Below, piece by piece: positions 24,562-42,125 of a stretch of 42,125 nt of DNA. The stretch is from a virus (Duplodnaviria; Heunggongvirae; Uroviricota; Caudoviricetes), in IMG/VR virus record IMGVR_UViG_2537561991_000019, positions 1 to 42,125 of that record; one strand, written 5' to 3'. The position numbers and the translations under genes were made by a program. Every line of letters starts with the position of its first letter. The first letter of the stretch is position 1. Under the pieces are notes generated by a model, which saw nothing but the letters and a program-made list of their open reading frames with translations, was not told where the DNA came from and ran no database searches.

Positions 24562-24948
24562 CTATATGTAACAATCAATTTCTAAAGATACCCCCAACAT
24601 TGCCAGACAACCGTCAATAAACCCTTCAGCTTTCTGCAGTCTGATAACAACCTGATTAAGTGATATCCCCAGTTTTACCCCCAACGCCCGTAATGTAACC
24701 CCATACACATAATACATTTCCAGTAATTCGTATTGATACGGTTCCTTTTTCTTAAGAACTGTCATCGCAGAGCTAATGATCAGGCCATCGTCATCGCTAC
24801 ATTGCGGGCGGGATTTTACTTTCGAAGGAATTAATCCCTTAAAACCTGCAGCAACAGATGACCATTCCACATCCTCGTGATTATTTGCCACCCATGCCCC
24901 CCAACGTTCAAGAACCATTTGAGTATCACGCATCAACTTTCTCCACAA
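24562..24948 (-). CDS. Late-gene antiterminator Q (QuuD-like short Q family)
   Basis: ~123-128 aa, ...MRDTQMVLERWGAWVANNHEDVEWSSVAAGFKGL..., resembling the remembered DLP12 QuuD; sits just upstream of the late region. Start could be the Met at 24933. Confidence 0.7.
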   Translation of the reverse strand: MWRKLMRDTQMVLERWGAWVANNHEDVEWSSVAAGFKGLIPSKVKSRPQCSDDDGLIISSAMTVLKKKEPYQYELLEMYYVYGVTLRALGVKLGISLNQVVIRLQKAEGFIDGCLAMLGVSLEIDCYI

Positions 24949-24950
24949 AA

Positions 24951-25946
24951 TCAGGGCAGCACGCCTATTGCCAGCGCACGATCGATAAAACGAAATATCA
25001 GCTCCAGCTGGGAGCCATACTTCTCTTCAAATGCCACGGTATCCGCATGCAGCTCGTCGTGATGCTTTCTGCACAAAGGCAACACAAAAAGGTCATGCGC
25101 TTTTGTAGCCATTCCACCCTGACCGTGACCTATCAGGTGGTGGGGATCATCAGCAGGCTTTCCACAACATGCACACGGCTGTGTCTTAACCCAGCGCGTG
25201 TACTTTTCATTAACCCAGCGGCGACGTTTTGGGCGTAACATAAAAGACTCCGGCGACTCCGGATCCACTTTCAGCGCCAGCACCTTTTTCGCTTTATCCT
25301 GGATGATGCTGGTGGCAGGAACCGAAGGCACAAGGTCACTTTCCCGGGTGACAGACGGCACAACAGGCTTCGGTAATCTCAGTGCCTTACGGGCTGCACT
25401 TTCCGGTAAGGCATCCGCCAGGTCATTACGAATCAGCCACCAGCACAGTTCCGGCATTGTCACAACGTGACTGTCATCAAAACCGAGATCCCGACGCACA
25501 ACAGACAACACCCAGCGGGTACAGTTATCCGTTGCCATTGATTCCAGTCGTTCCGTGAACTGATCGCGCAGCTGGTTATCGCAGTGCCAGCACAGACGGA
25601 TTGCACCCGGAGCGTGTCGCATTGTGGTCATGTTCTCGCTGTGCCAGTCGGAATGAGGCCACTGGCAGCCTTTTTCACGAAGTAACCAGCTTTCAAGACA
25701 TTCCACGCCACCAGCACGACGGATCACTGCCTCATTGCGGAACACGGCCCGAACGGCAGGATCATCCGCCAGCGGTTGTGATGCCGCCGGAACGGCACCA
25801 CTGGCGAAAGATGAATAACGCTCCGGCTCAGGCTCCAGCAGGACACGCCCCTGCATAAACAGGGGCATCAGCTCTGAACCTGGCCTGAACAATACGATCC
25901 CCATACGCGGGGCAATTTCAGGGGTCAGTAGTGCTCTCACGGTCAC
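24951..25946 (-). CDS. DUF968-like phage protein with C-terminal HNH-like Cys/His motif
   Basis: 331 aa; C-terminal ...CACCGKPADDPHHLIGHG...LPLCRKHHDELH... resembles an HNH/zinc-finger motif; adjacent to Q. Confidence 0.5.
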   Translation of the reverse strand: MTVRALLTPEIAPRMGIVLFRPGSELMPLFMQGRVLLEPEPERYSSFASGAVPAASQPLADDPAVRAVFRNEAVIRRAGGVECLESWLLREKGCQWPHSDWHSENMTTMRHAPGAIRLCWHCDNQLRDQFTERLESMATDNCTRWVLSVVRRDLGFDDSHVVTMPELCWWLIRNDLADALPESAARKALRLPKPVVPSVTRESDLVPSVPATSIIQDKAKKVLALKVDPESPESFMLRPKRRRWVNEKYTRWVKTQPCACCGKPADDPHHLIGHGQGGMATKAHDLFVLPLCRKHHDELHADTVAFEEKYGSQLELIFRFIDRALAIGVLP

Positions 25947-25947
25947 C

Positions 25948-26757
25948 TCAATGAACGGTATCGAGCAGCTTTAACAGCTCAGGGAATCGGGATTCGAAGA
26001 AATGCGGCTGTGTCTCGCGCGGATTTGCGGGACTGGTGATGTTCTTGCCGAACATGCAACCTTTCGCTGTCAGCGACCAGAATTTTTTGATGTTGTTAAT
26101 CGCAGTGCGGCTGTATCGTTCGCGCTGCTCGACGATCCCCAGTTTCACCATCTGGTGATATGCCTGATTAGCCGTCAGGCGTATACCATACTGCTTCAGC
26201 AGTGCACTCAGTGACAGTGTCGGGCGACTTGAGCCATCAGGCGCGTCAGCAGGAGCATCAATGGCATAGCGCGGTGCCAGATTCGGTAAGCCAACAGCCT
26301 CCTGGAGTTTCTGACAGGCACCAAGCACTGAAGAGTTAGACAGGTTTAATTCCCGGCGCATAAAGTCCAGCAGAATCACACCAGCCTGCATCTTGTCAGC
26401 AGCCTGTCCGGATAATTTTTCCGGTGCGCTGGTTACCATGTCGAAAGTACGGATCACCTTCAGATGGAATGACGGGCTGATCCACATTGCATAGGCATAC
26501 ACCAGTTCCTTGCAGACATACGTTCCCCGTTCATTTCCCCCATGAATCACACTCACCGGGTCAACACCCAAATTCTGGGTGTTGGTCAATTCATGAACAA
26601 GCTCAACAGTTTGTTGGCTGGAAAGAAACTTTCCTGGCTCCTTGGTTCTGGCATTTGCACCAGATGCTACTGCTGCGCGATGCAGATCGTTCAGGCTGTA
26701 ACGCCCATAAGCATCACGACGAACTTCAATACCATCAATGACCATCAGATTATTCAT
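25948..26757 (-). CDS. Phage protein with possible KilA-N-type N-terminal DNA-binding domain
   Basis: 269 aa beginning MNNLMVIDGIEVRRDAYGRYSLNDLHRAA; assignment weak. Confidence 0.35.
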   Translation of the reverse strand: MNNLMVIDGIEVRRDAYGRYSLNDLHRAAVASGANARTKEPGKFLSSQQTVELVHELTNTQNLGVDPVSVIHGGNERGTYVCKELVYAYAMWISPSFHLKVIRTFDMVTSAPEKLSGQAADKMQAGVILLDFMRRELNLSNSSVLGACQKLQEAVGLPNLAPRYAIDAPADAPDGSSRPTLSLSALLKQYGIRLTANQAYHQMVKLGIVEQRERYSRTAINNIKKFWSLTAKGCMFGKNITSPANPRETQPHFFESRFPELLKLLDTVH

Positions 26758-26776
26758 ACTTCGTTTCTCCTCTTAA

Positions 26777-27166
26777 TCAGGCGGCTGCACCCGCCGTTTT
26801 CTCGTACTTACTGATAGTGATCTCGACCTTCCCTTTCGGGATAACCGGTCCCCACTCCACCAGCATTCTTTTCACCTGTCTGTCGTCTTCCCACACACCC
26901 GCGTGGGTCAGGGCGTCAAACAGCGCCTTGTTATAGTTGTCCAGATCACGGATCCGGTTATCCGGCGGAAACAACACGATCTCCACTGAAGCAGGTGCCG
27001 ACGTTGGTTTCGGCAGACGACGTAACTGCTCAACTATTGCTGCGCACGCCGCGCTCTGAAATTTTCGCCCCGCCTCGCTTATCAGGCTCTTACCAGCAAA
27101 TGCCCCTTTGTTGGGGTGTCGCCAGTACGTGTTCACACTGGGCGGGAAAGGAAGGATCAACTTCAT
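26777..27166 (-). CDS. rusA: Holliday junction resolvase RusA
   Basis: 129 aa with the RusA pattern ...DNRIRDLDNYNKALFDALTHAGVWEDDRQV... Confidence 0.85.
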   Translation of the reverse strand: MKLILPFPPSVNTYWRHPNKGAFAGKSLISEAGRKFQSAACAAIVEQLRRLPKPTSAPASVEIVLFPPDNRIRDLDNYNKALFDALTHAGVWEDDRQVKRMLVEWGPVIPKGKVEITISKYEKTAGAAA

Positions 27167-27489
27167 ACTTTCAGGCCCCTCTCATGTAACCAGTGGGCTG
27201 CACGCAACCTGGCGCTCTCCTCACCGGCAAGCAGTGCGCGGATGATACCGACCGCTTCGCTGTCGTCGTCCTTCACTGCGGTATGAAGCGTGATCCCCCG
27301 GGCCACGCCACGCTTTATCGTGATGACGCCTTTTTTCTCCAGTGCGCGAAGATGCTCCACCGCTGCATTCACTGAACGGTATCCCAGCATGGTTGCCACC
27401 TCCTGATTGGTTGGCGGAAAGCCACGCTCTTGCTGGTAAGAAATCAGCATATCCAGCACCTGCTGCTGGCATTGAGTTAACGTCGTCAT
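27163..27489 (-). CDS. LexA-like winged-helix DNA-binding domain protein lacking the S24 peptidase domain
   Basis: 108 aa; LTQCQQQVLDMLISYQQERGFPPTNQEVATMLGYRSVNAAVEHLRALEKKGVITIKRGVARGITL aligns with the LexA N-terminal domain; no C-terminal Ser-Lys peptidase region. Confidence 0.6.
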   Translation of the reverse strand: MTTLTQCQQQVLDMLISYQQERGFPPTNQEVATMLGYRSVNAAVEHLRALEKKGVITIKRGVARGITLHTAVKDDDSEAVGIIRALLAGEESARLRAAHWLHERGLKV

Positions 27490-28139
27490 GCCGCCATCTC
27501 CCTGACAAGTTTTTCTGCCTGCTGGCGAACCTGCGCCAGAAACGCCTCACCACATGCCTCAAGTTCATCGCGCCCGATGTAGCTGATTGCCGGTCCCTTC
27601 CAGGTCTTGTCGAAAACAGCAATAGCACCAGCGAAGAAAGCGCCTGTCGGCACCTGCTTCTCGTCCTTCGGGATAAACCAGGCTGGCAGTTCAAAACCAA
27701 TACGCCCGCGAATAAAAGCAATATGGTCTGCATCTTCCGGCCACCACACTTCGCTGGTGGCAGCTTTGATCAGGAAAACATAGCGCCCGCCTTTATCACG
27801 CATAGCACTGGCATGTTTCATGATGTAACGCATGCCGGTGATGTATTGCCCCTCATGCTGACTGGCGCGGCTGTACGGGGGATTACCAAAGGCAGCACCT
27901 TTAAGCTCCGCAAGACGTTCTGACCAGTCATGCGCCAGCGCGTTGTCTTCCGCAGTGTAATAAGCGGCACATTTGGCGTTATCACCATCAGTGAACAGAT
28001 CCAGAACAAACGGGCCAAACAGGGTGTTAATTCCCCAGAAAATGTTGTCCGGCGTGCGCCACTGATCGCCCACTTCCTTCAGTTCATGGGCTGGTTTGTT
28101 CCGCAGTTCCACCAGCGCCTGGCAATATTTATTACTCAT
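27486..28139 (-). CDS. Phage Dam-family N6-adenine DNA methyltransferase
   Basis: Start at MSNKYCQALVEL (TAATG overlap with the upstream stop); NPPY motif (AFGNPPYS). Confidence 0.75.
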   Translation of the reverse strand: MSNKYCQALVELRNKPAHELKEVGDQWRTPDNIFWGINTLFGPFVLDLFTDGDNAKCAAYYTAEDNALAHDWSERLAELKGAAFGNPPYSRASQHEGQYITGMRYIMKHASAMRDKGGRYVFLIKAATSEVWWPEDADHIAFIRGRIGFELPAWFIPKDEKQVPTGAFFAGAIAVFDKTWKGPAISYIGRDELEACGEAFLAQVRQQAEKLVREMAA

Positions 28140-28633
28140 TAAGCCCCCACGTAATTCCCTGATAGATACCACTCTTCACCTGATGCAGCGCGCTTGCTGC
28201 TTTTCCGTAAGCACCGCTCACGACGCGCCAGAAAATTGTTTCGTTCTGGCTGGGAGTGGCTTTCACGGAATGCCGCCATCCACACGGTTGCAGCACGACG
28301 GTATAAGCCCCTTGACTCCAGTTCTTCAGCCTGGCGGGTCAGGCACAAAATCACCCGGGGATCGTTAGTGCCGACATAGAAATTGCGCACAGGTCTGGTT
28401 TCACGAACTGGTTGTGGTTCCGGCTCCTGCGCTCTCTCAGTCAGGCGTGGGAAATGTCTGCGTGTATCTCCTTCACAACGGTGAGCCACACGCCCACTCT
28501 GACGTAACTTGCTTGCAGACTGCAGAACGCGCTGCCGTGAGTAACCTGCAAAAGCATCCGCAATGTCTCCGGAAGTACACCCCGGATGGGCTTCAATGAA
28601 TTTCTGAACTTCATTCAAAAGACTCATGATCAC
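28139..28633 (-). CDS. Hypothetical protein, possibly with a PerC-like regulator C-terminal region
   Basis: 164 aa; ...GLYRRAATVWMAAF... recalls PerC-family regulators (weak); translationally coupled to flanking genes. Confidence 0.35.
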   Translation of the reverse strand: MIMSLLNEVQKFIEAHPGCTSGDIADAFAGYSRQRVLQSASKLRQSGRVAHRCEGDTRRHFPRLTERAQEPEPQPVRETRPVRNFYVGTNDPRVILCLTRQAEELESRGLYRRAATVWMAAFRESHSQPERNNFLARRERCLRKSSKRAASGEEWYLSGNYVGA

Positions 28634-29448
28634 CCCCTGAATCCTACCGGGATCTGGCTGTAGTCCACATTGTCGTAACTGGCTTTGAAGTACGGGTCCT
28701 CGCGTCTGGCTGCAGATACCGCAGGAACTTCCCAGGATTCTTCGAAATGACGATCCGGACCAAAGAACGTGACAGCCTGTTTCACAAATTGTGTGCCGCT
28801 GTTACCCATCGCAGATACCCAGCCCGCGTAGCGTTTCACACCTTCCAGCATGGTTTCGGGGTTTACCCCCTCATTCAAACGGGCTTTCCAGGCTTTGAAG
28901 GCTGCAGATTTTGAATTGCCACCAGCACGTTTGGGATATACCAGCCATGCCTGCTCAAACTCCGGAGAGTATTCCGGTCGGTTTGAACGAACTCGCACAG
29001 ACTCATCAGCAGATGCACCAACAGCTATTGGTTCATTGACTGGTTCTTTGACTGGTTCAAAAGAGTGACTGGTTCTGGGTGAATCTCCTGCACTACCCCC
29101 TGGTGCAACTCCTGCACTACCTGGTGAATTTGCTGCACCAGATAGTGAATTATTTGCACTACCCCCTAGTGAATCTCCTGCACCATCCAGATGAAGGAGA
29201 TAGATATTACTTGAGTTACCTTTTTCACCTTTCCGGGTGACTTTTTTTACCAGCCCGGACTCACAAAGGGCCGCAATATGATTCATCACAGAACGTTTGC
29301 TAATCTCGCACTGGTCAGCAATATGCTGGTAGCTGGGCCAGCACTCCCCCTGATCGCTGGCATTATCAGCCAGCTTGATCAGAACCAGTTTTCGCAATGG
29401 ATTTCCCACTCGAATTTTCATCGCTTTAACCATCAGCTCCATACTCAT
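28630..29448 (-). CDS. Replication initiator (lambda O-like) with internal origin iterons
   Basis: N-terminal HTH/winged-helix region; Gly/Ser/Ala-rich linker encoded by the repeat array; conserved C-terminal domain. Confidence 0.65.
   Translation of the reverse strand: MSMELMVKAMKIRVGNPLRKLVLIKLADNASDQGECWPSYQHIADQCEISKRSVMNHIAALCESGLVKKVTRKGEKGNSSNIYLLHLDGAGDSLGGSANNSLSGAANSPGSAGVAPGGSAGDSPRTSHSFEPVKEPVNEPIAVGASADESVRVRSNRPEYSPEFEQAWLVYPKRAGGNSKSAAFKAWKARLNEGVNPETMLEGVKRYAGWVSAMGNSGTQFVKQAVTFFGPDRHFEESWEVPAVSAARREDPYFKASYDNVDYSQIPVGFRG
29078..29188. repeat. Candidate replication-origin iterons: about five ~21-23 bp direct repeats inside the O-like gene
   Basis: Plus-strand units ggtgaatctcctgcactaccccc / tggtgcaactcctgcactacc / tggtgaatttgctgcaccag / atagtgaattatttgcactaccccc / tagtgaatctcctgcaccatcc, followed by AT-rich sequence. 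Confidence 0.55.
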
Positions 29449-29669
29449 GCAGCACCTCCGAGATGCTTCATGTTTTTTCCGGAGCGAAAGGCTATAAGCG
29501 GCATACTGACGCGGTAATTACGGCCCAGCGGTTCACAAACCACCTTCTGACATTCACGGTCAACCAGGCTAACACGTAGAACATGCCCTGCAGGCGTGGT
29601 GTACCACTGACCCGGACGAGGACAACGGAAAGTCTGATTGGTAAAACGTTTGAAAATATTCCGGATCAT
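29445..29669 (-). CDS. Small hypothetical protein
   Basis: 74-aa ORF with ATGA-type overlaps to both neighbours. Confidence 0.3.
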   Translation of the reverse strand: MIRNIFKRFTNQTFRCPRPGQWYTTPAGHVLRVSLVDRECQKVVCEPLGRNYRVSMPLIAFRSGKNMKHLGGAA

Positions 29670-30109
29670 TTGCGCCCCCTTACCTCTGAAGAGTTCAGCG
29701 ACGAATGAATAAGACGGGCAAGAAATGCCGCATCGTTAATTCGGTCATACAGACTTACAGCCAGCGGTGATTCAGCTTTTTCCAGCATGGGATAAAGCTG
29801 CTGCAACCAGACCTGATGAATTGATGAAATGTAGGAATAGAGAACGCTGGCGTTATGTGCAACGTCGCTCGGTACAGAGGGCTTTGAAAGCTGTTTCTCC
29901 ATCTGGTTAAAGGCATTGATGTATGCCTCTTTGAACTGGGCAGCACGTTTACCCGTGAAACCCATAGCAAGAAACGCAAAGCCATCGCGGGTTATTTGAT
30001 AGCAAGGTAGTTTGCGAGTACCGCCGTTGGGCTGGCGTACCAAAATTGATGTCTCCGCAAAATTGCGGGCACAAAACTCTGGAGAACAATCCAAAATGCG
30101 AATCTTTTT
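29666..30109 (-). pseudogene. 3' fragment of a Rha-domain regulatory gene split by the IS66 insertion
   Basis: ...YQITRDGFAFLAMGFTGKRAAQFKEAYINAFNQME... is the remembered Rha core; the reading frame rejoins in frame with the fragment at 32809-32931 when the IS and one copy of the target duplication are removed. Confidence 0.7.
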
Positions 30110-30162
30110 GTAACCGGCTCATTTAAACCGTCTGGTCTGTTTCCTCCGGCTCTACAAAAATA

Positions 30163-30840
30163 ATGTCCATCATTTTTAATGGACACTATCGTATGAAACA
30201 CCGGACCTGGATCACTGAAGCTTTACGTCTTCACTTTGAAGAACATTTACCCCGGGTTGTGGCCGGGCGTCGCCTGGGTGTACCAAAATCAACAGTTTGT
30301 AGTATGTTCGTGCGCTTTCGGAGAGCTGGCCTTTCGTGGCCTTTGCCCGCAGGCATGTCGGAGCAGGAACTTGATGCCTGCCTTTACGGACAATTTTCCA
30401 CGGTACCAGTCGTACGTCCTGAAAGCACCGTTATATCCGAAGCCCCCGTGGTAAAAAAACGTCCCCGGCGGCCCAACTTCCCTTATGAGTTTAAAATCGC
30501 CTTAGTGGAGCAGTCACTGCAGCCCGGAGCCTGTGTGGCGCAGATCGCCCGGGAAAACGGAATCAACGATAACCTGCTCTTCAACTGGCGCCATCAATAC
30601 CGGAAAGGTGGCCTGCTGCCTTCCGGAAAAAATATGCCGGCACTGCTTCCCGTGACGTTAACGCCGGAGCCGGATAATAAAATCCCGGCCCCCGCACAGG
30701 AACCAGAGCAGATAAATACACCGTCCGACAGTCTGTGTTGTGAGCTGGTTCTGCCGGCCGGAACTCTCAGGCTTAAAGGTAAACTGACGCCGGCGTTATT
30801 ACAGACACTTATCCGCGAAATAAAAGGGAGCAGCCACTGA
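30163..30840 (+). CDS. IS66-family accessory protein (orfA)
   Basis: First ORF of the element with an HTH-like segment; stop overlaps the orfB start. Confidence 0.65.
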   Translation: MSIIFNGHYRMKHRTWITEALRLHFEEHLPRVVAGRRLGVPKSTVCSMFVRFRRAGLSWPLPAGMSEQELDACLYGQFSTVPVVRPESTVISEAPVVKKRPRRPNFPYEFKIALVEQSLQPGACVAQIARENGINDNLLFNWRHQYRKGGLLPSGKNMPALLPVTLTPEPDNKIPAPAQEPEQINTPSDSLCCELVLPAGTLRLKGKLTPALLQTLIREIKGSSH

Positions 30841-31187
30841 TGATATCTCTCCCTGCAGGTTCGCGTATCTGGCTGGTTGCAGGTATCACCGATATGCGAA
30901 ATGGCTTTAACGGCCTGGCATCAAAAGTTCAGAACGTCCTGAAGGATGACCCGTTCTCCGGACACCTGTTCATCTTCCGCGGACGCCGGGGTGACCAGAT
31001 AAAAGTGTTGTGGGCTGACAGTGACGGACTGTGCCTCTTCACCAAACGCCTGGAGCGGGGCCGCTTCGTCTGGCCAGTCACCCGTGACGGCAAGGTGCAC
31101 CTTACTCCGGCTCAGTTATCCATGCTTCTTGAAGGTATCAACTGGAAGCACCCGAAACGAACGGAACGCGCTGGAATCCGCATATAA
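30840..31187 (+). CDS. IS66-family accessory protein (orfB)
   Basis: 115 aa, MISLPAGSRIWLVAGITDMRNGFNGLA..., characteristic IS66 Orf2. Confidence 0.8.
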   Translation: MISLPAGSRIWLVAGITDMRNGFNGLASKVQNVLKDDPFSGHLFIFRGRRGDQIKVLWADSDGLCLFTKRLERGRFVWPVTRDGKVHLTPAQLSMLLEGINWKHPKRTERAGIRI

Positions 31188-31206
31188 CCCGTTGTAAAGT
31201 GAGGAT

Positions 31207-32779
31207 ATGGACACCTCACTTGCTCATGAGAACGCCCGCCTGCGGGCACTGTTGCAGACGCAACAGGACACCATCCGCCAGATGGCTGAATACAACCGCC
31301 TGCTCTCACAGCGGGTGGCGGCTTATGCTTCCGAAATCAACCGGCTGAAGGCGCTGGTTGCGAAACTGCAACGTATGCAGTTCGGTAAAAGCTCAGAAAA
31401 ACTTCGTGCAAAAACCGAACGGCAGATACAGGAAGCACAGGAGCGAATCAGCGCACTTCAGGAAGAAATGGCGGAAACGCTGGGTGAGCAATATGACCCG
31501 GTACTGCCATCCGCCCTGCGCCAGTCTTCAGCCCGTAAACCGTTACCGGCCTCACTTCCCCGTGAAACCCGGGTTATCCGGCCGGAAGAGGAATGCTGTC
31601 CTGCCTGTGGTGGTGAACTCAGTTCTCTGGGATGTGATGTGTCAGAGCAACTGGAGCTTATCAGCAGCGCCTTTAAGGTTATCGAAACACAACGTCCGAA
31701 ACAGGCCTGTTGCCGGTGCGACCATATCGTGCAGGCACCAGTACCTTCAAAACCCATTGCACGCAGTTATGCCGGAGCGGGGCTTCTGGCCCATGTTGTC
31801 ACCGGGAAATATGCAGACCATCTGCCGTTATACCGCCAGTCAGAAATATACCGTCGTCAGGGAGTGGAGCTGAGCCGTGCCACACTGGGGCGCTGGACAG
31901 GTGCTGTTGCTGAACTGCTGGAGCCGCTGTATGACGTCCTGCGCCAGTATGTGCTGAATGCCCGGTAAAGTCCATGCTGATGATATCCCCGTCCCGGTCC
32001 AGGAGCCGGGCAGCGGTAAAACCCGGACAGCCCGGCTGTGGGTCTACGTCCGTGATGACCGTAACGCCGGTTCACAGATGCCCCCGGCGGTCTGGTTCGC
32101 GTACAGTCCGGACCGGAAAGGTATCCATCCACAAAATCACCTGGCCGGTTACAGCGGTGTGCTTCAGGCCGATGCTTACGGTGGTTACCGGGCGTTATAC
32201 GAATCCGGCAGAATAACGGAAGTCGCGTGTATGGCTCATGCCCGGAGAAAAATCCACGATGTGCATGCAAGAGCGCCCACCTACATCACCACGGAAGCCC
32301 TGCAGCGTATCGGTGAACTGTATGCCATCGAGGCAGAGGTCCGGGGCTGTTCAGCAGAACAGCGTCTGGCGGCAAGAAAAGCCAGAGCCGCGCCACTGAT
32401 GCAGTCACTGTATGACTGGATACAGCAACAGATGAAAACACTGTCGCGTCACTCAGATACGGCAAAAGCGTTCGCATACCTGCTGAAACAGTGGGATGCA
32501 CTGAACGTGTACTGCAGTAATGGCTGGGTGGAAATCGACAACAACATCGCAGAGAACGCCTTACGGGGAGTGGCCGTAGGCCGGAAAAACTGGATGTTCG
32601 CGGGTTCCGACAGCGGTGGTGAACATGCGGCGGTGTTGTACTCGCTGATCGGCACATGCCGTCTGAACAATGTGGAGCCAGAAAAGTGGCTGCGTTACGT
32701 CATTGAACATATCCAGGACTGGCCGGCAAACCGGGTACGCGATCTGTTGCCCTGGAAAGTTGATCTGAGCTCTCAGTAA
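31207..32779 (+). pseudogene. IS66-family transposase (orfC) interrupted by a frameshift near 31958-31968
   Basis: Two overlapping ORFs (253 aa and 273 aa) together have the length and features of one IS66 transposase (leucine-zipper-like N-terminus, CPACGGEL zinc-finger-like motif, catalytic core). Confidence 0.7.
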
Positions 32780-32808
32780 ATATCAATACGGTTCTGACGA
32801 GTCGCTTA

Positions 32809-33537
32809 CATCTTTTTCAGAACATCGTCATGACGTTTAGAGAAGAAGTCAGCAACAGCCAAAGAAGATGTAACAGCCTGACCATCAACGATGGCAATTT
32901 CAGGTTGAGAGAGGGTTGGGAGAGTAGTCATAGTGACAGCCCCGGTAGTCAGTTTTTTAGAAAACTCACCACATGGGACGCCAATCACAGAGGTGGTGAG
33001 ACGTACAGGGTTGGCGTTACCGGAGACTACCGAACCCGGCCCGACCGAAGTCGGCCCTGTACGCCCCACCATAATTTGGGCGTAGCAATGCTCATGACAC
33101 GAAAAAACCGCATGAGCGCGGTTATGCTCAGTAATCAATTTCAGGACGCCAATCCCGGCACCCGCTTTATAAGGTGCCTGAACAGTGTAACGTCCCGGAA
33201 TGGCAGAATCAATGTGCTGGTGGTCCTTCACACTCAACAAAATCACGCCTGAATTTCCACAAAGGACTAAAGCACTCATGCGGGTAGTCTTTGCGAAGAT
33301 AGATAACGCGCTGAGTTTCTGGCTCCCAACGAATAACATGGACATAAAGCCCTCTTCCATCACGAAACCAGCGGTTAAGTTCCTGCACAACTCGCCCCCC
33401 ACAGTCAGGTAAAGTTCTCTGTGGTTACTTACAGCCAGGTGATTTGGTAATCTGCATTCATGCCGTAACAACAGGTGTTCAGCGACACTGACCACCAGCT
33501 GTTGCGACAAACGGTTATTTGCCGTTAAACTGTTCAT
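32809..33537 (-). pseudogene. 5' portion of the IS-disrupted gene; its last 41 codons are the Rha-domain N-terminus
   Basis: MTTLPTLSQPEIAIVDGQAVTSSLAVADFFSKRHDDVLKK runs into the IS inverted repeat. The open frame extends upstream to an ATGA overlap with the preceding gene, so the true start is unclear. Confidence 0.5.
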
Positions 33538-34097
33538 GCGTTAGTTTCTCCACAGACACAAAACGCCACGACGCCCGGAGCTGCACACTCGCGGGCGTCA
33601 CTCTTTTCTAGAGCGCAAAAGATTTTGTAGACCAGTGCTGCATGCTCCTGGAGCTTCGAAATTGACAGATACAACTCATCATTAATTGCTGTCTGCTCGT
33701 GTGGCTCCACTACCCCATCTTCGATTGCCGAACGAATCTGCTTTGAGTAACTCCCGATCTGTTCGATGACTTCCAGCAGGCGCTGGTTTATATCGGCGTT
33801 CTCTACTTCCTCAATTTCAGGAAGCGATACAAACACCCCACCAGCAGACTGTGCGACAGCATCCGCAATGTAGTGAGTGCCAGCCGCGCGCTGTAAAATC
33901 ATTGCCCATCCCAGCGGGAAAATCTGATCGCCATCTGCACGAAGGCGGTTGAATAAAGCGTTCTCTGTTACATCCAGCCACTCAGCAGCTTCAGCGTAAC
34001 CCCCCGGCAACGCCGCGATAGTTTTTCTGACAGCTTTCACGTACCACTCAGGCTGTTTTTCTACTTTCCAGTGATGCTTACCCACGGTTAGCCTCAT
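33534..34097 (-). CDS. Putative CII-like early regulator (assigned by position after cro)
   Basis: 187-aa ORF directly downstream of cro and translationally coupled to the next gene; no confident sequence-level family call. Confidence 0.35.
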   Translation of the reverse strand: MRLTVGKHHWKVEKQPEWYVKAVRKTIAALPGGYAEAAEWLDVTENALFNRLRADGDQIFPLGWAMILQRAAGTHYIADAVAQSAGGVFVSLPEIEEVENADINQRLLEVIEQIGSYSKQIRSAIEDGVVEPHEQTAINDELYLSISKLQEHAALVYKIFCALEKSDARECAAPGVVAFCVCGETNA

Positions 34098-34128
34098 CGT
34101 TCTGTGGTTAAAAATTGAAGGTGTTCTG

Positions 34129-34329
34129 TTAATCTTTCGGATAGATATCCGGTCTTAAGTCAGATTTCGTAATTGCACCTGACGTGCATTGCTCAAGTTT
34201 TTTAGCCAACACAAAACTGGCTTTTTTATAACCATTGAAAACCAGCCGTAAGTAGCCTGATGTTGAGCCAACTTTTCCGGCCAACTCGCCCTGCTGTTCT
34301 TTGGTTAAAGAGTCCCAATACGCTTTCAT
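34129..34329 (-). CDS. cro: Cro-like HTH repressor
   Basis: 66 aa, MKAYWDSLTKEQQGELAGKVGSTSGYLRLVFNGYKK..., HTH pattern; divergent from the cI-like gene; GGAGG 10 nt upstream of the ATG. Confidence 0.7.
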   Translation of the reverse strand: MKAYWDSLTKEQQGELAGKVGSTSGYLRLVFNGYKKASFVLAKKLEQCTSGAITKSDLRPDIYPKD

Positions 34330-34335
34330 ACAATA

Positions 34336-34402
34336 TGTACCTCCGATGTACATATTACATGATTGAGATGAACCTTCAAGATACTTGTACCCTATCGGTA
34401 CA
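34336..34402. promoter_or_regulatory. Right-operator-like region: two 17-bp palindromic operators in the cro/cI divergent promoter region
   Basis: TGTACC-TCCGA-TGTACA at 34336-34352 and TGTACC-CTATC-GGTACA at 34386-34402, between the cro start (34329) and cI start (34420); candidate -10/-35 elements overlap them. Confidence 0.55.
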
Positions 34403-34419
34403 AAGGTTTTAATTTCGTT

Positions 34420-35094
34420 ATGAAAACAGTCCATGACATCCGGCGGTCTAACGCCAGAAAACTGAGAGATGGTGTTGGCGGGAATTCTTCCTTTGCCACC
34501 ATGATTGATCGCGAGCCAACCCAGACCAGCAGGTTTATGGGAGATGGTGCTACTAAAAATATCGGTGACAGCATGGCACGGCACATCGAAAAATGTTTCG
34601 ACCTGCCTGTCGGATGGCTTGATCAAGAACACCAGACAACAAACATCACAAAAAAACCTGATGTTTCAATTACTAACAAACAAATAACGTTAGTCCCTGT
34701 CATATCATGGGTACAGGCCGGAGCATGGAAAGAAGTTGGCTATTCTGAGGTTGATTTGAGCACAGCAGAAACTTATCCCTGCCCTGTACCCTGTGGCGAA
34801 ATGACTTATATCTTGCGGGTGATTGGTGATTCAATGATTGATGAGTACCGCCCGGGAGACATGATTTTTGTTGATCCTGAAGTCCCTGCCTGCCACGGTG
34901 ACGACGTTATTGCATTGATGCACGATACAGGCGAAACCACCTTCAAGCGGTTGATAGAAGATGGAACACAGCGTTATCTCAAAGCATTAAACCCAAACTG
35001 GCCTGAGCCTTACATTAAGATTAACGGTAATTGCTCTATAATTGGTACAGTAATTTTCTCAGGAAAACCAAGAAGATACAAAATAAAGGCCTAA
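34420..35094 (+). CDS. cI: CI-type prophage repressor (N-terminal HTH, C-terminal S24 LexA-like autopeptidase domain)
   Basis: 224 aa; C-terminal RVIGDSM serine motif and an Ala-Gly candidate cleavage site (VQAGAW); divergent from cro; essentially leaderless. Confidence 0.85.
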   Translation: MKTVHDIRRSNARKLRDGVGGNSSFATMIDREPTQTSRFMGDGATKNIGDSMARHIEKCFDLPVGWLDQEHQTTNITKKPDVSITNKQITLVPVISWVQAGAWKEVGYSEVDLSTAETYPCPVPCGEMTYILRVIGDSMIDEYRPGDMIFVDPEVPACHGDDVIALMHDTGETTFKRLIEDGTQRYLKALNPNWPEPYIKINGNCSIIGTVIFSGKPRRYKIKA

Positions 35095-35106
35095 TCAATA
35101 TTTATA

Positions 35107-35129
35107 ACCTGCTTCGGCAGGTTTTTTTA
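35107..35129 (+). terminator. Intrinsic terminator after cI
   Basis: ACCTGC-TTCG-GCAGGT followed by TTTTTTT, 13 nt after the cI stop. Confidence 0.65.
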
Positions 35130-35132
35130 TAC

Positions 35133-35160
35133 TTGACAATGTACCCTTGAGATACATAAT
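35133..35160 (+). promoter_or_regulatory. PL-like early-left promoter with embedded operator
   Basis: -35 TTGACA (35133-35138), 16-nt spacer, -10 CATAAT (35155-35160); third operator copy TGTACC-CTTGA-GATACA at 35140-35156 overlaps spacer and -10. Confidence 0.5.
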
Positions 35161-35760
35161 GTATCTAAAAGAAACATGCCACAGGCAAGATTAAACAAAA
35201 TTTGCTTGTAACACGGCGTATGGCACATGCGTCGTTAGCGGTCTGGGGACGTTAAAGGGGACAATCCACTCCTTGCTCGGGCAAACAAACCAGGTAGCCG
35301 GAATGTGCAAGTCAATGAGGATGCTGATAAGACGCCTAACCAGCGTGGCGATTCGGTTTGACGCCTGGGAAGAGACCAGGGTGCAACGATGAGGGCATTT
35401 ATGGAGCCGCGACAAAGTGTGGTGCCGTAACTGGCTAAGTGCTCTCAGCGTTGTGGTAATCCGCGAAATGGCGCGGCGGTAAGTATGGCGGGGTTACTCT
35501 TTCCCCGTTGAGGACACCGGATTGTCAGGTTGACCATACGCCTGAGTGACAACCCCACCACAACAGCCACTGCTTTGGCGGTACCAGTTTGTGCACTTGC
35601 TTCCGGCTGGTACCGCTCTTTTTACAAAACAGAGAAGAGCATCACCGGACGACGGGCTCATAACCCAATCCATCCGGGCGGCTGCCACCGCAGGTGTTCT
35701 TCTCTGTTTTGTGGAGAAACCAACCGACCTTGCAGGGTCGATATGATGAGGAGCAGCAAA

Positions 35761-37140: not shown

Positions 37141-37677
37141 ATGTCATTTATTAAAACTTTTTCCGGGAAGCATTTTTATTATGACAAGATAAATAAAGAC
37201 GACATCGTGCTTAACGATATCGCAGTTTCCCTCTCAAATATCTGTCGCTTTGCAGGGCATCTTTCACACTTCTACAGCGTCGCCCAACATGCGGTGCTTT
37301 GCAGCCAGCTGGTACCGCAGGAGTTTGCTTTCGAAGCGTTAATGCATGATGCAACAGAAGCATATTGCCAGGACATCCCCGCGCCACTGAAACGACTTCT
37401 TCCTGACTATAAACGGATGGAAGAAAAAATAGACGCCGTAATCCGTGAGAAATACGGGTTACCTCCTGTTATGAGCACGCCAGTGAAATATGCCGATCTC
37501 ATTATGCTGGCAACCGAACGCCGCGATCTCGGGCTTGATGATGGCTCTTTCTGGCCTGTACTGGAAGGCATCCCGGCAACAGAGATGTTCAAAGTTATTC
37601 CACTGTCACCAGGCCATGCCTACGGGATGTTTATGGAACGTTTTAACGAGTTATCGGAATTACGCAAATGTGCATAA
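37141..37677 (+). CDS. yfdR: HD-domain phosphohydrolase (YfdR-like 5'-deoxynucleotidase)
   Basis: Start at MSFIKTF preceded by GGAGAA; HD-type metal-binding pattern (...AQHAVLC...MHDATEAY...). Confidence 0.7.
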   Translation: MSFIKTFSGKHFYYDKINKDDIVLNDIAVSLSNICRFAGHLSHFYSVAQHAVLCSQLVPQEFAFEALMHDATEAYCQDIPAPLKRLLPDYKRMEEKIDAVIREKYGLPPVMSTPVKYADLIMLATERRDLGLDDGSFWPVLEGIPATEMFKVIPLSPGHAYGMFMERFNELSELRKCA

Positions 37678-38546
37678 CTCATGTAGTTAGTTTTTCTGGC
37701 GGGAGAACATCTGCATATCTTGTTCACCTGATGGAAGAACAAAGAAAGACTGGAAATAACGTCTGCTACATCTTTATGGATACCGGTTGCGAACATCCGC
37801 TGACATACCGCTTTATTCGGGAGGTTGTGAAGTTCTGGGGCATACCGCTAACTGTGTTGCAGGTCGATATAAATCCAGAGCTTGGGCAGCCAAATGGTTA
37901 TACGGAATGGGAACCAAAGGATATTCAGACACGAATGCCGGTGCTTAAACCGTTTATGGACATGGTAAAAAAATATGGCACGCCATACATCGGCGGCGCG
38001 TTCTGCACTGACAGATTAAAACTCACCCCCTTCACAAAATACTGCGATGACCATTTCGGACGAGGGAATTACATCACATGGCTGGGTATTCGTGCAGACG
38101 AACCTCGTAGGCTGAAACCGAAATCGGGCGTCCGGTATCTTGCCGAGCTATCTGATTTTGATAAGTCGGATGTTATCCGGTGGTGGCATAAACAACCTTT
38201 TGATTTGCAAATCCCGGAGCACCTCGGGAACTGTGTTTTCTGCATCAAAAAGTCCACGCAAAAGCTGGGGCTTGCATGTAAAGACGAACCTGGTCTGATG
38301 CGAGTTTTTAATGAGCTGGTTACAGGTAAACACGTCCGGGATGGTCACCGAAAGACAAATAAAGACGTTATGTACCGTGGTCATCTGAGCCTTGACGGGA
38401 TTGCCAGAATGTATGCCGACAGCGACTACAGAAATTTGTATCAGGCGATGGTGCAAGCCAGGCGATTCGATACCGGCTCGTGTTCAGAGTCATGTGAAAT
38501 CTGGGGTGATCAATTGGAATTGAAATTCGAAGAGGTGGTGGCATGA
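37668..38546 (+). CDS. PAPS-reductase-like / PP-loop ATP pyrophosphatase family protein
   Basis: N-terminal SFSGGRTS PP-loop-like motif; overlaps the end of the yfdR-like gene. Confidence 0.6.
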   Translation: MCITHVVSFSGGRTSAYLVHLMEEQRKTGNNVCYIFMDTGCEHPLTYRFIREVVKFWGIPLTVLQVDINPELGQPNGYTEWEPKDIQTRMPVLKPFMDMVKKYGTPYIGGAFCTDRLKLTPFTKYCDDHFGRGNYITWLGIRADEPRRLKPKSGVRYLAELSDFDKSDVIRWWHKQPFDLQIPEHLGNCVFCIKKSTQKLGLACKDEPGLMRVFNELVTGKHVRDGHRKTNKDVMYRGHLSLDGIARMYADSDYRNLYQAMVQARRFDTGSCSESCEIWGDQLELKFEEVVA

Positions 38547-41112: not shown

Positions 41113-41143
41113 ACAAAAAACCCGCTTCGGCGGGTTAGTTTTC
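41113..41143. terminator. Bidirectional intrinsic terminator between the convergent operons
   Basis: CCCGC-TTCG-GCGGG flanked by AAAAAA on one side and TTAGTTTTC on the other; sits between the plus-strand gene ending at 41108 and the minus-strand gene ending at 41135. Confidence 0.6.
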
Positions 41144-41569
41144 ATCTTTATAATTCTGGGCAATTCGCGCCAGATAGCTCATCACATCATGTTTTCTTGC
41201 TTTTTCATGTGCATCGGGATACATAATAGCAATGAGTGAATATTTATTCTCATAAAGCTCACCTTGGACATACACAAGACAAGCATCATTATCAGGATCA
41301 CCTTTCTTGCAGACCCTATCCGGTTGTGGAAGTTTCTCGGGAAACTTGTTTGGCGGTAGACAAAGATGGATATGCATCAACCCAGCCCGAAAAGCACCAT
41401 AAGGCTGAGTATACGCAACGTCCCTACCGAAATAATGCGGAAGCTCACCGGTTGCTTTGTATCTCTTGAAATCATCAATGATAGAAGACTCTAGCTCCGG
41501 GAATTTGAGAAAAACTTCATCAAAAAATTCAGCTCTAGTTTCTGGATTAATAGAGACTTCTAGATGCAT
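41135..41569 (-). CDS. Hypothetical protein, possibly a YafO-family toxin
   Basis: 144 aa; several motifs (...HYFGRD...HIHL...LVYVQG...SLIAIMYPDAHEKAR...) resemble my recollection of YafO-family mRNA interferases; AT-rich locus. Memory-based and unverified. Confidence 0.3.
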   Translation of the reverse strand: MHLEVSINPETRAEFFDEVFLKFPELESSIIDDFKRYKATGELPHYFGRDVAYTQPYGAFRAGLMHIHLCLPPNKFPEKLPQPDRVCKKGDPDNDACLVYVQGELYENKYSLIAIMYPDAHEKARKHDVMSYLARIAQNYKDEN

Positions 41570-41585
41570 GGTCGTCCGCTATCGG

Positions 41586-42125
41586 TTAGTGAAATTGCAT
41601 CGATTTTAGCTTATTTGATGTGTGACTAGCTAGTGCTGCAATTCCAGCAAGATCCGCGCGCCCGCTAAAAGTAACAGTTTCTTTAAATATGCTCTTTATG
41701 TAATTGTTAAGGCGAGTGACAGATGAGCGAGCTTTAGCAATATGACGCCAGTAAACCTTCAGTTCTGACCTGATAAATTCAGGCAGAGGCGATTCAATTG
41801 TACGCTTCACTTCTTCTTCAAAAGCACGCAGGAACATTTCGCATGCCTCTGTCGTATCTGTCCCGTTTTTGGAAACAAACTCGCGAGCATCTTGGCTATT
41901 AAGATCAATCAAACAGATATAGTAGTCATCTGCTGCAATTGTTAACTTTTGCAAGATCTCCTTACCCTCTTCCATTTTGCGTGAGAATTCCTCAACAGAA
42001 GGAGAGTACTCAAAAGGTTTAGCAATCACAGGGGCTGGCTGGATGATGAACTCCTGCGCCATAGCAGCAGGACAAGCCAGAGGCCCGCACAATGCAGCAA
42101 AAGTAATGGCGTTAAACGGATTCAT
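41586..42125 (-). CDS. Hypothetical protein with signal-peptide-like N-terminus, upstream partner of the possible toxin gene
   Basis: 179-aa ORF whose first codon is at the very edge of the window (may extend beyond); 17 nt upstream of the YafO-like ORF. Confidence 0.4.
   Translation of the reverse strand: MNPFNAITFAALCGPLACPAAMAQEFIIQPAPVIAKPFEYSPSVEEFSRKMEEGKEILQKLTIAADDYYICLIDLNSQDAREFVSKNGTDTTEACEMFLRAFEEEVKRTIESPLPEFIRSELKVYWRHIAKARSSVTRLNNYIKSIFKETVTFSGRADLAGIAALASHTSNKLKSMQFH

Follow-up and report, generated by a model that had tools for sequence, protein, structure and literature searches.

How does a lambdoid prophage come to carry an insertion sequence in the middle of its early-right operon, and what would the insertion do to the genes beyond it? 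We examined this in a 42,125-nt stretch of viral DNA (the window), taken at its full length. The host element is an E. coli-type lambdoid prophage with e14/CPS-53-like early genes, and it follows the lambdoid early-right order of divergent cI-like and cro-like genes, with cII-like, replication and Q genes next on one strand: YmfK (LexA/S24-type), YmfT, YmfL (CII-like, Phage_CP76), an O-like initiator and Q. The window does not reach the left end of the prophage, and the remainder of the tail fibre gene and, presumably, the integrase lie outside it; a tRNA scan found no tRNA genes in the window. The account that we consider very likely combines a recent jump of ISCro1 into a Rha-type gene, polarity on the early-right genes, and an IS copy that is probably no longer autonomous.

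The core of the locus is a 2,700-bp element with ATCTTTTT directly outside each end:

30110-32809, plus strand: ISCro1 (IS66 family), 2,700 bp in this copy, 2,699 bp in the canonical element
30102-30109, no strand: left copy of the target-site duplication, ATCTTTTT, from repeat comparison and the single 8-mer in the PigCaeca_1 empty site
32810-32817, no strand: right copy of the target-site duplication, ATCTTTTT, from repeat comparison
30110-30131, plus strand: left terminal inverted repeat, GTAACCGGCTCATTTAAACCGT, from a repeat search
32788-32809, minus strand: right terminal inverted repeat, GTAAGCGACTCGTCAGAACCGT, from a repeat search, letters given on the minus strand

The 8-mer occurs four times on the plus strand across the 42-kb window, and the probability that 8 bp match by chance beside two fixed ends is 4^-8 (∼1.5e-5). 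A chance direct repeat is ruled out by comparison with the empty site in E. coli PigCaeca_1 (NZ_CP039298), to which window positions 24957-30109 and 32810-35464 align at 98-99%. The two matches overlap there by exactly 8 bp, with a single ATCTTTTT (...AATGCGGATCTTTTTCAGAAC...), and the flanks of the element are exactly contiguous. Deletion of the IS and one repeat copy from the window gives an in-frame join (...FFSKRHDDVLKKIRILDCSPEFCARNF...). Together, these observations show that one ISCro1 copy landed by transposition in a lambdoid prophage, within its Rha-type regulator gene, and left the 8-bp duplication that the staggered cut of this family typically produces. The event is an ordinary gene disruption, already known in kind. 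The first-pass annotation had proposed an IS66-family insertion with these boundaries and an intact 8-bp duplication, and had named alignment to an uninterrupted prophage as a check; PigCaeca_1, which joins both flanks and has the 8-mer once, at the same point, bears the proposal out.

ISCro1 was first named in Citrobacter rodentium and is common on E. coli chromosomes and plasmids. The window element is identical to the copy on plasmid pE275a_90 at 2,699 of 2,699 aligned bases, plus one inserted A; the plasmid copy has an 8-bp duplication of its own, ACAACTAA. Records from E. coli that match the element at 99% identity or more number 1,779; in the PGAP annotation the transposase is called 'IS66-like element ISCro1 family transposase'. 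Published insertions of the 2,699-bp ISCro1 likewise carry an 8-bp duplication, for example TAACCTTT (PMC12115866). The inverted repeats GTAACCGGCTCATTTAAACCGT and GTAAGCGACTCGTCAGAACCGT are imperfect (16 of 22 positions matching) and open in the GTAA-type manner of the IS66 family (GTAACCGG... and GTAAGCGA...), as in ISCro1. The interior of the element is as follows:

30163-30840, plus strand: tnpA, IS66 accessory protein, 225 aa (Pfam HTH_Tnp_1, E = 8.6e-15)
30840-31187, plus strand: tnpB, IS66 Orf2, 115 aa (Pfam TnpB_IS66, E = 4.7e-40)
31207-31968, plus strand: 5' part of tnpC (Pfam LZ_Tnp_IS66, zf-IS66, and DDE_Tnp_IS66 positions 1-67)
31958-32779, plus strand: 3' part of tnpC, 273 aa (Pfam DDE_Tnp_IS66 positions 69-283, and DDE_Tnp_IS66_C)
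31957-31958, plus strand: extra A, frameshift in tnpC (GCTGAATGCC here against GCTGATGCC in the canonical element)

The order tnpA-tnpB-tnpC on the plus strand is shared with annotated ISCro1, as is the length of tnpA, and this Pfam gene set, with an identity to ISCro1 complete save for one base, confirms the family. The difference lies in tnpC: canonical TnpC is a single ORF of 523 aa, whereas in the window copy it is split by the extra A. The 5' part encodes native residues 1-250, then the residues NAR before a stop codon, and the 3' ORF encodes native residues 251-523, starting at native Met251. All TnpC domains are present but divided between the two ORFs, so that the leucine-zipper, zinc-finger and DDE_Tnp_IS66 domains do not occur in one polypeptide. 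This split marks a mutated IS66 member and does not contradict membership of the family. The copy would later have gained, or been sequenced with, the extra A, setting the DNA-binding part of TnpC apart from the catalytic part. Because the extra A splits TnpC, the window copy is probably not autonomous, and would probably be mobile only with transposase supplied by another ISCro1. Programmed frameshifting in tnpC is ruled out by the single 523-aa ORF of the canonical element. A 62-nt probe across the extra A matched 5,241 places in 5,426 E. coli genomes, none of them at 99% identity or above and none with the extra A, which rules out a defective ISCro1 lineage with the same frameshift. Neither the name ISCro1 nor the tnpC frameshift had appeared in the first-pass annotation.

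Could the element owe its apparent position to assembly, or to IS-mediated recombination instead of simple transposition? Multi-copy repeats are a known source of misassembly, and many E. coli strains carry several copies of ISCro1, at up to 34 places per genome. However, neither a misjoin nor recombination between two IS copies would recreate a matching duplication, and here the duplication is perfect, of exactly the family size, and collapses to one copy between contiguous flanks in PigCaeca_1; such an origin is hardly conceivable. A sequencing or assembly error confined to the extra A, which would make the IS an intact and autonomous ISCro1, is unlikely though well within reason. It concerns one base, the other 2,699 bp of the element being identical, and its absence from every other copy is expected of an error as well as of a private mutation. 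On the other hand, the change is from A to AA, with no long homopolymer at the site, and comparison of ∼50 other window genes with homologues yielded no frameshift, which argues against a generally error-prone assembly.

The gene that received the element now exists as two fragments:

32806-33072, minus strand: 5' fragment of the Rha-type gene, taking the conserved orf45-type ATG (33072) as starting point
29666-30109, minus strand: 3' fragment of the Rha-type gene, 147 codons plus stop (Pfam Phage_pRha positions 32-91)

The cut lies inside the Rha domain, 41 codons past the Rha-domain ATG (32931). Read from upstream, the frame ends after a single codon of the IS (...DDVLKKM, then a stop), and the insertion leaves the 3' half without a start codon. 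The joined protein matches Pfam Phage_pRha (PF09669) over positions 1-91 of 91 with 94.6 bits (cutoff 29.9); the C-terminal fragment alone scores 66.2 bits, the domain being split in the window as it stands. The repaired protein also matches phrog_821 over its full length, a subfamily whose presumed role is that of a Rha-type regulator. An intact 321-aa Rha protein in PigCaeca_1 covers both pieces, its residues 1-177 corresponding to 33339-32809 and 175-321 to 30109-29669 at 98-99% identity (99.3% for the 3' fragment against residues 175-321). Thus the earlier proposals that the two fragments are parts of one gene, and that their union restores a Rha-type domain in frame, are both upheld. Intact homologues occur in the deposited complete genomes of the named phages 1720a-02 (a 'putative antirepressor', 95.5% identical to the repaired protein), ST64B (Sb41, 77%) and cdtI. 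The repaired window protein shares the full-length PF09669 domain of the Rha family, but the window gene is broken, unlike rha of phi80 and P22 and the genes of 1720a-02 and Sb41.

The junction was sought in other genomes. A 301-nt probe over the left junction found no place with at least 80% coverage in 5,426 complete E. coli genomes, and an exact 37-mer across the junction is absent from the GTDB representative genomes; a shared or ancestral insertion was rejected on this basis. Because of this absence, and because neither the gene halves (98-99% identical to the intact protein) nor ∼50 other window genes (aligned full-length and in a single piece to homologues) have decayed, the event looks recent, in agreement with the first reading of the locus.

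Where the interrupted gene begins is a separate matter, and it involves two RNA genes and a possible promoter:

33184-33212, minus strand: candidate PisrK-type promoter (-35 TTGATT, 17-nt spacer, -10 TACACT), 7 nt before the 5' end of IsrK
33101-33177, minus strand: IsrK-like RNA, analogue of P4 seqA (Rfam RF01394, 59.3 bits, gathering 50, full model)
32989-33076, minus strand: C4-type antisense RNA (Rfam RF01695, 82.3 bits, gathering 45, full model)

The outer coordinate given earlier, 33537, marks only the first ATG in a long frame without stops, and it is very probably not the gene start. In the 243-aa 'N-terminal fragment' (33537-32806), the upstream two-thirds are not established coding sequence: they overlap a DUF4222 gene in another frame and contain the IsrK-like and C4-like RNA genes, a point absent from the first-pass annotation. 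The likely start of the Rha-type protein is 33072 or 32931. In the homologue, PGAP sets the start at the position equivalent to 33339, and the equivalent of 33246 is where a stand-alone homologue, an 'ash family protein', begins. The IsrK-like RNA has its own terminator hairpin (33123-33106), and the C4-type RNA, an analogue of P4 CI and Gifsy-1 STnc1160, overlaps the orf45-type start codon. At 13 of 13 related loci, Gifsy-1 among them, the sense strand carries the IsrK-like and C4-like RNAs in tandem. The candidate promoter lies below the threshold of the consensus promoter scan; it aligns with the region upstream of Gifsy-1 isrK, and T46, A70, A72 and T74 are invariant among 14 sequences. 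In the multi-locus alignment on which ORFs were compared across loci, all sequences have the orf45-type ATG at the Gifsy-1 +107 position, and the orf45-type frame runs into the Rha ORF without a stop (138 or 141 nt) here and at 10 of 10 Rha-type loci.

The window locus resembles the Gifsy-1 isrK-orf45-anrP module (Hershko-Shalev et al. 2016, PMC4825925) in its tandem RNAs, its conserved candidate promoter, its invariant orf45 start codon, and its spacing. As in the RNA immunity systems of P4 (seqA/CI) and P1 (c4) (PMC3632133), the gene lies directly behind the IsrK-like and C4-like RNAs. The modules differ in other respects: the downstream protein of Gifsy-1 is the ORF6N-domain AnrP, whereas that of the window has a Rha domain; orf45 of Gifsy-1 is coupled by an ATGA overlap, whereas the orf45-type frame here is fused in frame to the Rha ORF; and the Gifsy-1 module follows a Q-like gene, whereas the window module precedes the replication genes within the early-right operon. 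The interrupted protein was considered as an AnrP orthologue and rejected, since BLASTP gave no similarity (E = 0.88) and AnrP has an ORF6N domain. The RNA leader alone is common to the two loci.

What lies beyond the insertion determines its predicted effect. Leftward from the IS are the replication initiator, a PerC-like activator, methylases, RusA and Q:

29445-29669, minus strand: gene for a 74-aa protein, with an ATGA overlap with the regulator gene
28630-29448, minus strand: replication initiator (phrog_270 'replication initiation protein', E = 4.4e-88; Pfam HTH_36, DnaD_N)
24562-24933, minus strand: Q-type late antiterminator, last gene of the packed leftward string (phrog_79, E = 1.2e-43)

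Start/stop overlaps of 4 nt tie the genes at 28630-29669 to the regulator gene; overlaps of 1-4 nt extend from the regulator gene to rusA, followed by gaps of 7-19 nt up to Q. This gene order, with the phrog_270 initiator downstream, places the element inside the early-right operon and upstream of the replication gene, as had been proposed. The IS genes are on the plus strand and the operon on the minus strand, and the IS is therefore antisense to the operon. This orientation, and the position of Q downstream of the insertion, were absent from the first-pass annotation. Long untranslated RNA ahead of start/stop-coupled genes is a classic setting for Rho-dependent polarity. Because 2.7 kb of untranslated antisense IS RNA would separate both upstream promoters (the cro-side pR-equivalent, positioned from gene order, and the PisrK-like site at about 33184-33212) from overlapping or abutting downstream genes, transcriptional polarity and lost translational coupling are expected. 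After induction, replication and late-gene expression would be greatly reduced, locking the prophage in to a large extent. The gene arrangement thus makes polarity and a defective prophage plausible, the latter a possibility that the first reading had already raised, and from this arrangement we also infer the degree of polarity; lambda-type antitermination can override IS polarity and could provide a bypass. A similar case is reportedly that of lambda r14 and r32, for which Brachet and colleagues (1970) and Fiandt and colleagues (1972) are said to have located an IS between cII and O, polar on the replication genes. The window IS likewise has the immunity region on one side and the replication genes on the other, with polarity and a replication defect expected, but it belongs to another family and lies inside a coding gene rather than in a spacer.

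Is the insertion instead nearly neutral, the Rha-type gene being accessory, transcription crossing or restarting in the IS, and the prophage still inducible? Mozola and Friedman are said to have found in 1985 that Rha of phi80 and P22 is dispensable outside IHF-defective hosts, and loss of Rha alone may be harmless to the phage. According to a secondary description (PMC4936722), phages grow poorly in IHF-defective hosts because of these Rha products. IS66-family elements do occur in deposited prophage and phage records (ISCro1 in PPwrbA_EC3734, 99.9% identity; ISEc8 in many Stx phages), and a terminator in the antisense IS was sought and rejected: one weak hairpin (30707-30684, phage-sense strand) was found, and 9 sites against 7.7 expected from shuffled sequence, so that the IS has no significant intrinsic terminator in this direction. 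Against neutrality stand the conditions for Rho-dependent polarity described above, the 2.7 kb that the IS adds to a genome already longer than 42 kb, and the one tested case in which ISCro1 reduced downstream transcription: upstream of afaA in E. coli ST131, it lowered both afaA transcription and promoter activity (PMC8764528). A promoter downstream of the IS or reading out of it was also sought, and a consensus scan of the minus strand over 28000-35200 found no promoter-like site, a weak result, as the same scan missed the expected cro-side promoter. On balance we find near-neutrality rather doubtful, though it deserves weight. Less probable still, and quite unlikely in our judgement, is that in this phage group the IsrK/C4 leader is also coding, with the orf45-type frame fused to Rha, so that the IS leaves a possibly functional RNA module and an Ash-only peptide while the lytic programme is locked. 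In that case, what Pfam calls the 'Ash domain' would be a translated RNA-immunity element, the orf45-type frame would be the one unlocked by IsrK in Gifsy-1, and the truncated Ash-only peptide would be close in size to natural stand-alone 'ash family proteins'; the function kept might be superinfection immunity or satellite protection, a step in prophage domestication.

We favour an ISCro1 insertion with probable polar effects, and its value is chiefly for annotation and strain biology. Long ORFs named 'Rha', 'antirepressor', 'peptidase' or 'ash family' in many enterobacterial phages engulf the Rfam genes IsrK and C4, and their annotated starts are probably too far upstream. In the annotation of the prophage itself, the Rha-type regulator should appear as a pseudogene disrupted by ISCro1, and tnpC as a frameshifted pseudogene. 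The junction, which none of the 5,426 complete E. coli genomes contains, is a strain-specific marker. The prophage is likely impaired in replication and late-gene expression, and this predicted impairment bears on whether it should be called 'intact' or inducible.

The left junction of the insertion (30102-30110) runs from AATGCGA through ATCTTTTT into GTAACCGGCTCATTT, and the right junction (32800-32817) runs from GAGTCGCTTAC into a second ATCTTTTT followed by CAGAAC. Between the two repeats lies an element of 2,700 bp (30110-32809), whose termini are imperfect inverted repeats starting GTAA (16 of 22 positions matching). We deleted 30110-32817 in silico and compared the joined 1,693 bp with 5,426 complete E. 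coli genomes: at least 80% of this query is present in 502 of them, and the top match, strain PigCaeca_1, covers 100% of the query at 98.9% identity. In that strain the equivalent region is annotated as a single 321-aa 'Rha family phage regulatory protein'. BLASTN of the window against the PigCaeca_1 prophage locus (L003, from NZ_CP039298) aligns 24957-30109 with L003 15658-20810 and 32810-35464 with L003 20803-23458; these alignments share precisely 8 bp, ATCTTTTT, present in L003 as a single copy. The intact PigCaeca_1 protein maps onto the window in two parts, residues 1-177 and residues 175-321 (98-99% identity). The repaired protein gives full-length matches to Pfam Phage_pRha (94.6 bits) and to phrog_821, 'transcriptional regulator' (E = 3.4e-175). 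Uninterrupted homologues also occur in the deposited complete phage genomes 1720a-02 ('putative antirepressor', 95.5%), ST64B (Sb41) and cdtI (both about 77%). The first-pass annotation had described an 8-bp direct repeat around the element and an in-frame Rha gene restored by its removal; both descriptions are borne out, and the two halves, contiguous in PigCaeca_1, belong to one gene.

The element carries a full IS66 gene set by Pfam, in which tnpC occupies two open reading frames:

30163-30840, plus strand: tnpA (HTH_Tnp_1)
30840-31187, plus strand: tnpB (TnpB_IS66, E = 4.7e-40)
31207-31968, plus strand: tnpC 5' ORF (leucine-zipper, zinc-finger, DDE positions 1-67)
31958-32779, plus strand: tnpC 3' ORF (DDE positions 69-283, IS66 C-terminal element)

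By sequence, the element is ISCro1: 1,779 E. coli records reach at least 99% identity to it, and in PGAP annotation the transposase appears as 'IS66-like element ISCro1 family transposase'. Canonical ISCro1 is 2,699 bp long, and a published insertion has this length and an 8-bp duplication (PMC12115866). The reference copy on plasmid pE275a_90 is likewise flanked by its own 8-bp duplication, ACAACTAA, and differs from the window copy only by an extra A in the latter at 31957/31958 (GCTGAATGCC here, GCTGATGCC in the plasmid). The earlier assignment to the IS66 family therefore stands but is sharpened: the element is specifically ISCro1, with a frameshifted tnpC, and lies antisense to the phage operon. 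Because of the extra A, the 523-aa transposase TnpC is encoded in two pieces: residues 1-250, after which come NAR and a stop codon, and residues 251-523. The second piece begins at the native Met251, whose ATG lies 8 nt upstream of the first ORF's stop (31958-31968). The two TnpC halves could in principle arise by coupled re-initiation.

The extra A is absent from all 5,241 places in E. coli genomes that match a 62-nt probe across the site. It could be a sequencing error, but no frameshift is seen in the roughly 50 further genes of the window that were compared with homologues, and the site is not a long homopolymer; for these reasons we favour a real, private mutation that arose after insertion. 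The insertion itself appears recent, as had been proposed from the intact duplication. The perfect repeat, an IS otherwise identical to circulating copies, a target gene with both halves undecayed and the lack of this junction in the other genomes searched all point to this conclusion: the left junction was found neither in the 5,426 complete E. coli genomes searched nor in GTDB representative genomes.

The surroundings of the interrupted gene are those of a lambdoid early region:

34420-35094, divergent from the minus-strand genes: ymfK, cI-like
34329-34129, minus strand: ymfT, cro-like
34097-33534, minus strand: ymfL, cII-like
33388-33209, minus strand: DUF4222 gene
24933-24562, minus strand: Q, last of the leftward early string

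After the DUF4222 gene, the minus strand carries, in order, the interrupted regulator, a 74-aa protein, an O-like replication initiator (phrog_270), a PerC-like activator, Dam methylase, a LexA-like protein, RusA, KilA-N, DUF968 and Q; lysis, terminase, head and lambda-type tail genes extend beyond Q to the window's left edge. In the stretch between the regulator gene and rusA, each start codon overlaps the previous stop by 1-4 nt, and the remaining gaps up to Q are 7-19 nt, the packing predicted of a single, tightly coupled transcription unit. The IS lies antisense within this unit, upstream of the replication initiator, and splits the early-right operon as first suggested. All other compared genes are full-length, and no lesion apart from the IS can be seen in the window.

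The DUF4222 gene is complete (59 aa, phrog_1343 at full length) and overlaps the long upstream ORF in another frame; PGAP calls its PigCaeca_1 homologue an incomplete pseudogene and stretches the Rha CDS across it. From DUF968 rightward the early region matches the prophage of PigCaeca_1, whose late module encodes a sheathed tail and whose antiterminator is of the ydfT type; the window's Q differs from that of PigCaeca_1, its head and tail genes are lambda-type, like those of strain E189, and a mosaic breakpoint lies around 24940-24957. Directly after ymfK, a terminator-like hairpin is followed by a near-consensus promoter (35106-35160, plus strand; TTGACA, 16-nt spacer, CATAAT; 11/12) that faces the early-left genes and is likely the pL equivalent; about 400-570 nt downstream of it hold no convincing ORF. 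A 292-aa ORF of the early-left operon (37668-38546, plus strand) carries the annotation phosphoadenosine-phosphosulfate reductase domain protein in relatives and is missing from the PigCaeca_1 relative. At its right end (41138-42125) the window closes with the last ORF of the prophage's right arm, on which a PrtN-like gene, a YafO-family toxin and a 179-aa partner are found. Because the next feature in two relatives (L003 27339-28636; locus L005 10622-11919) is a 5' fragment of dusA, integration of this prophage type takes place in dusA; the window does not reach the integrase end.

Within the part of the regulator ORF that PGAP and Pfam treat as N-terminal 'Ash', Rfam identifies two RNA genes, both full-model matches on the sense strand:

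33177-33101, minus strand: IsrK-like RNA (RF01394; 59.3 bits, gathering score 50), terminator hairpin 33123-33106
33076-32989, minus strand: C4-type antisense RNA (RF01695; 82.3 bits, gathering score 45)

The Pfam Phage_ASH match (PF10554; 33189-32902, minus strand) covers exactly IsrK, C4 and their linker, and the tandem is present in all 13 related phage and prophage loci compared, among them the Gifsy-1 isrK locus, which has been studied by experiment. 'Ash family protein' annotations may be largely conceptual translations of this module. In 12 of the 14 aligned loci no stop interrupts the frame across IsrK, a pattern only partly accounted for. Other Phage_ASH matches coincide with IsrK/C4 sites in loci L005 (2565-3110) and L012 (1144-1404). 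In E. coli UTME-12 the gene behind the leader encodes a stand-alone 'ash family protein', and in a P88-like phage it encodes a 'derepression protein'. The presence of this P4-like seqA/CI-type system in lambdoid prophages had been noted before by Barquist et al. (PMC3632133). Translation of Gifsy-1 orf45, to which the antirepressor AnrP is coupled, is unlocked by the short IsrK RNA, and prophage induction results (PMC4825925).

Alignment of the leader from 14 loci reveals a conserved candidate sigma-70 promoter directly upstream of IsrK (in the window, -35 at 33212-33207 and -10 at 33189-33184) and an invariant ATG at window position 33072, corresponding to the Gifsy-1 orf45 start (+107). Whereas orf45 terminates in an ATGA overlap with anrP, the two frames are fused in the Rha-type loci: in 10 of 10, the frame from the 33072-type ATG is stop-free into a downstream ATG (32931 in the window), at a distance of 138 or 141 nt, divisible by three in each case despite the variable linker. 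From this conservation we place the probable start of the real product at 33072, giving 232 aa for the intact gene, or at 32931, giving 185 aa. Starts at 33339, 33246 or 33537 are unlikely, and the first-pass choice of 33537 is probably wrong, given the invariant ATG and the RNA genes in the upstream part. A relationship of the interrupted protein to AnrP was considered and rejected (BLASTP E = 0.88): AnrP has an ORF6N domain, and only the RNA leader is common to the two loci. With the promoters placed in this way, both the inferred cro-side and the PisrK-like promoter are cut off from the replication genes, which strengthens the original argument that the operon is disrupted.

In the interrupted gene, translation ends at 32806; before the next start codon is reached, a transcript would run through about 2.7 kb of antisense IS sequence, untranslated, and then 440 nt of coding sequence orphaned by the insertion. 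Such a transcript would be subject to Rho-dependent polarity and to loss of translational coupling. A crude scan, which also missed the expected cro-side promoter, found no promoter-like site on the minus strand downstream of the IS. In E. coli ST131, ISCro1 upstream of afaA lowered transcription and promoter activity (PMC8764528). It is therefore more likely than not that expression of the replication genes and Q is much reduced and that the prophage is defective for lytic growth. Loss of Rha alone may be tolerated. In IHF-deficient hosts, the rha products of phi80 and P22 are described as harmful to the phage (PMC4936722). In other hosts these genes are reportedly dispensable.

The insertion is of an ordinary, already known kind and represents no new kind of system; deposited records of Stx and other prophages commonly contain IS66-family elements, and the IsrK/C4 RNA module is already described in the literature. 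That IS elements insert into the early regions of prophages is well established. The window copy of ISCro1 behaves as described for the family, and what is specific to this strain is the insertion site and the private tnpC frameshift.
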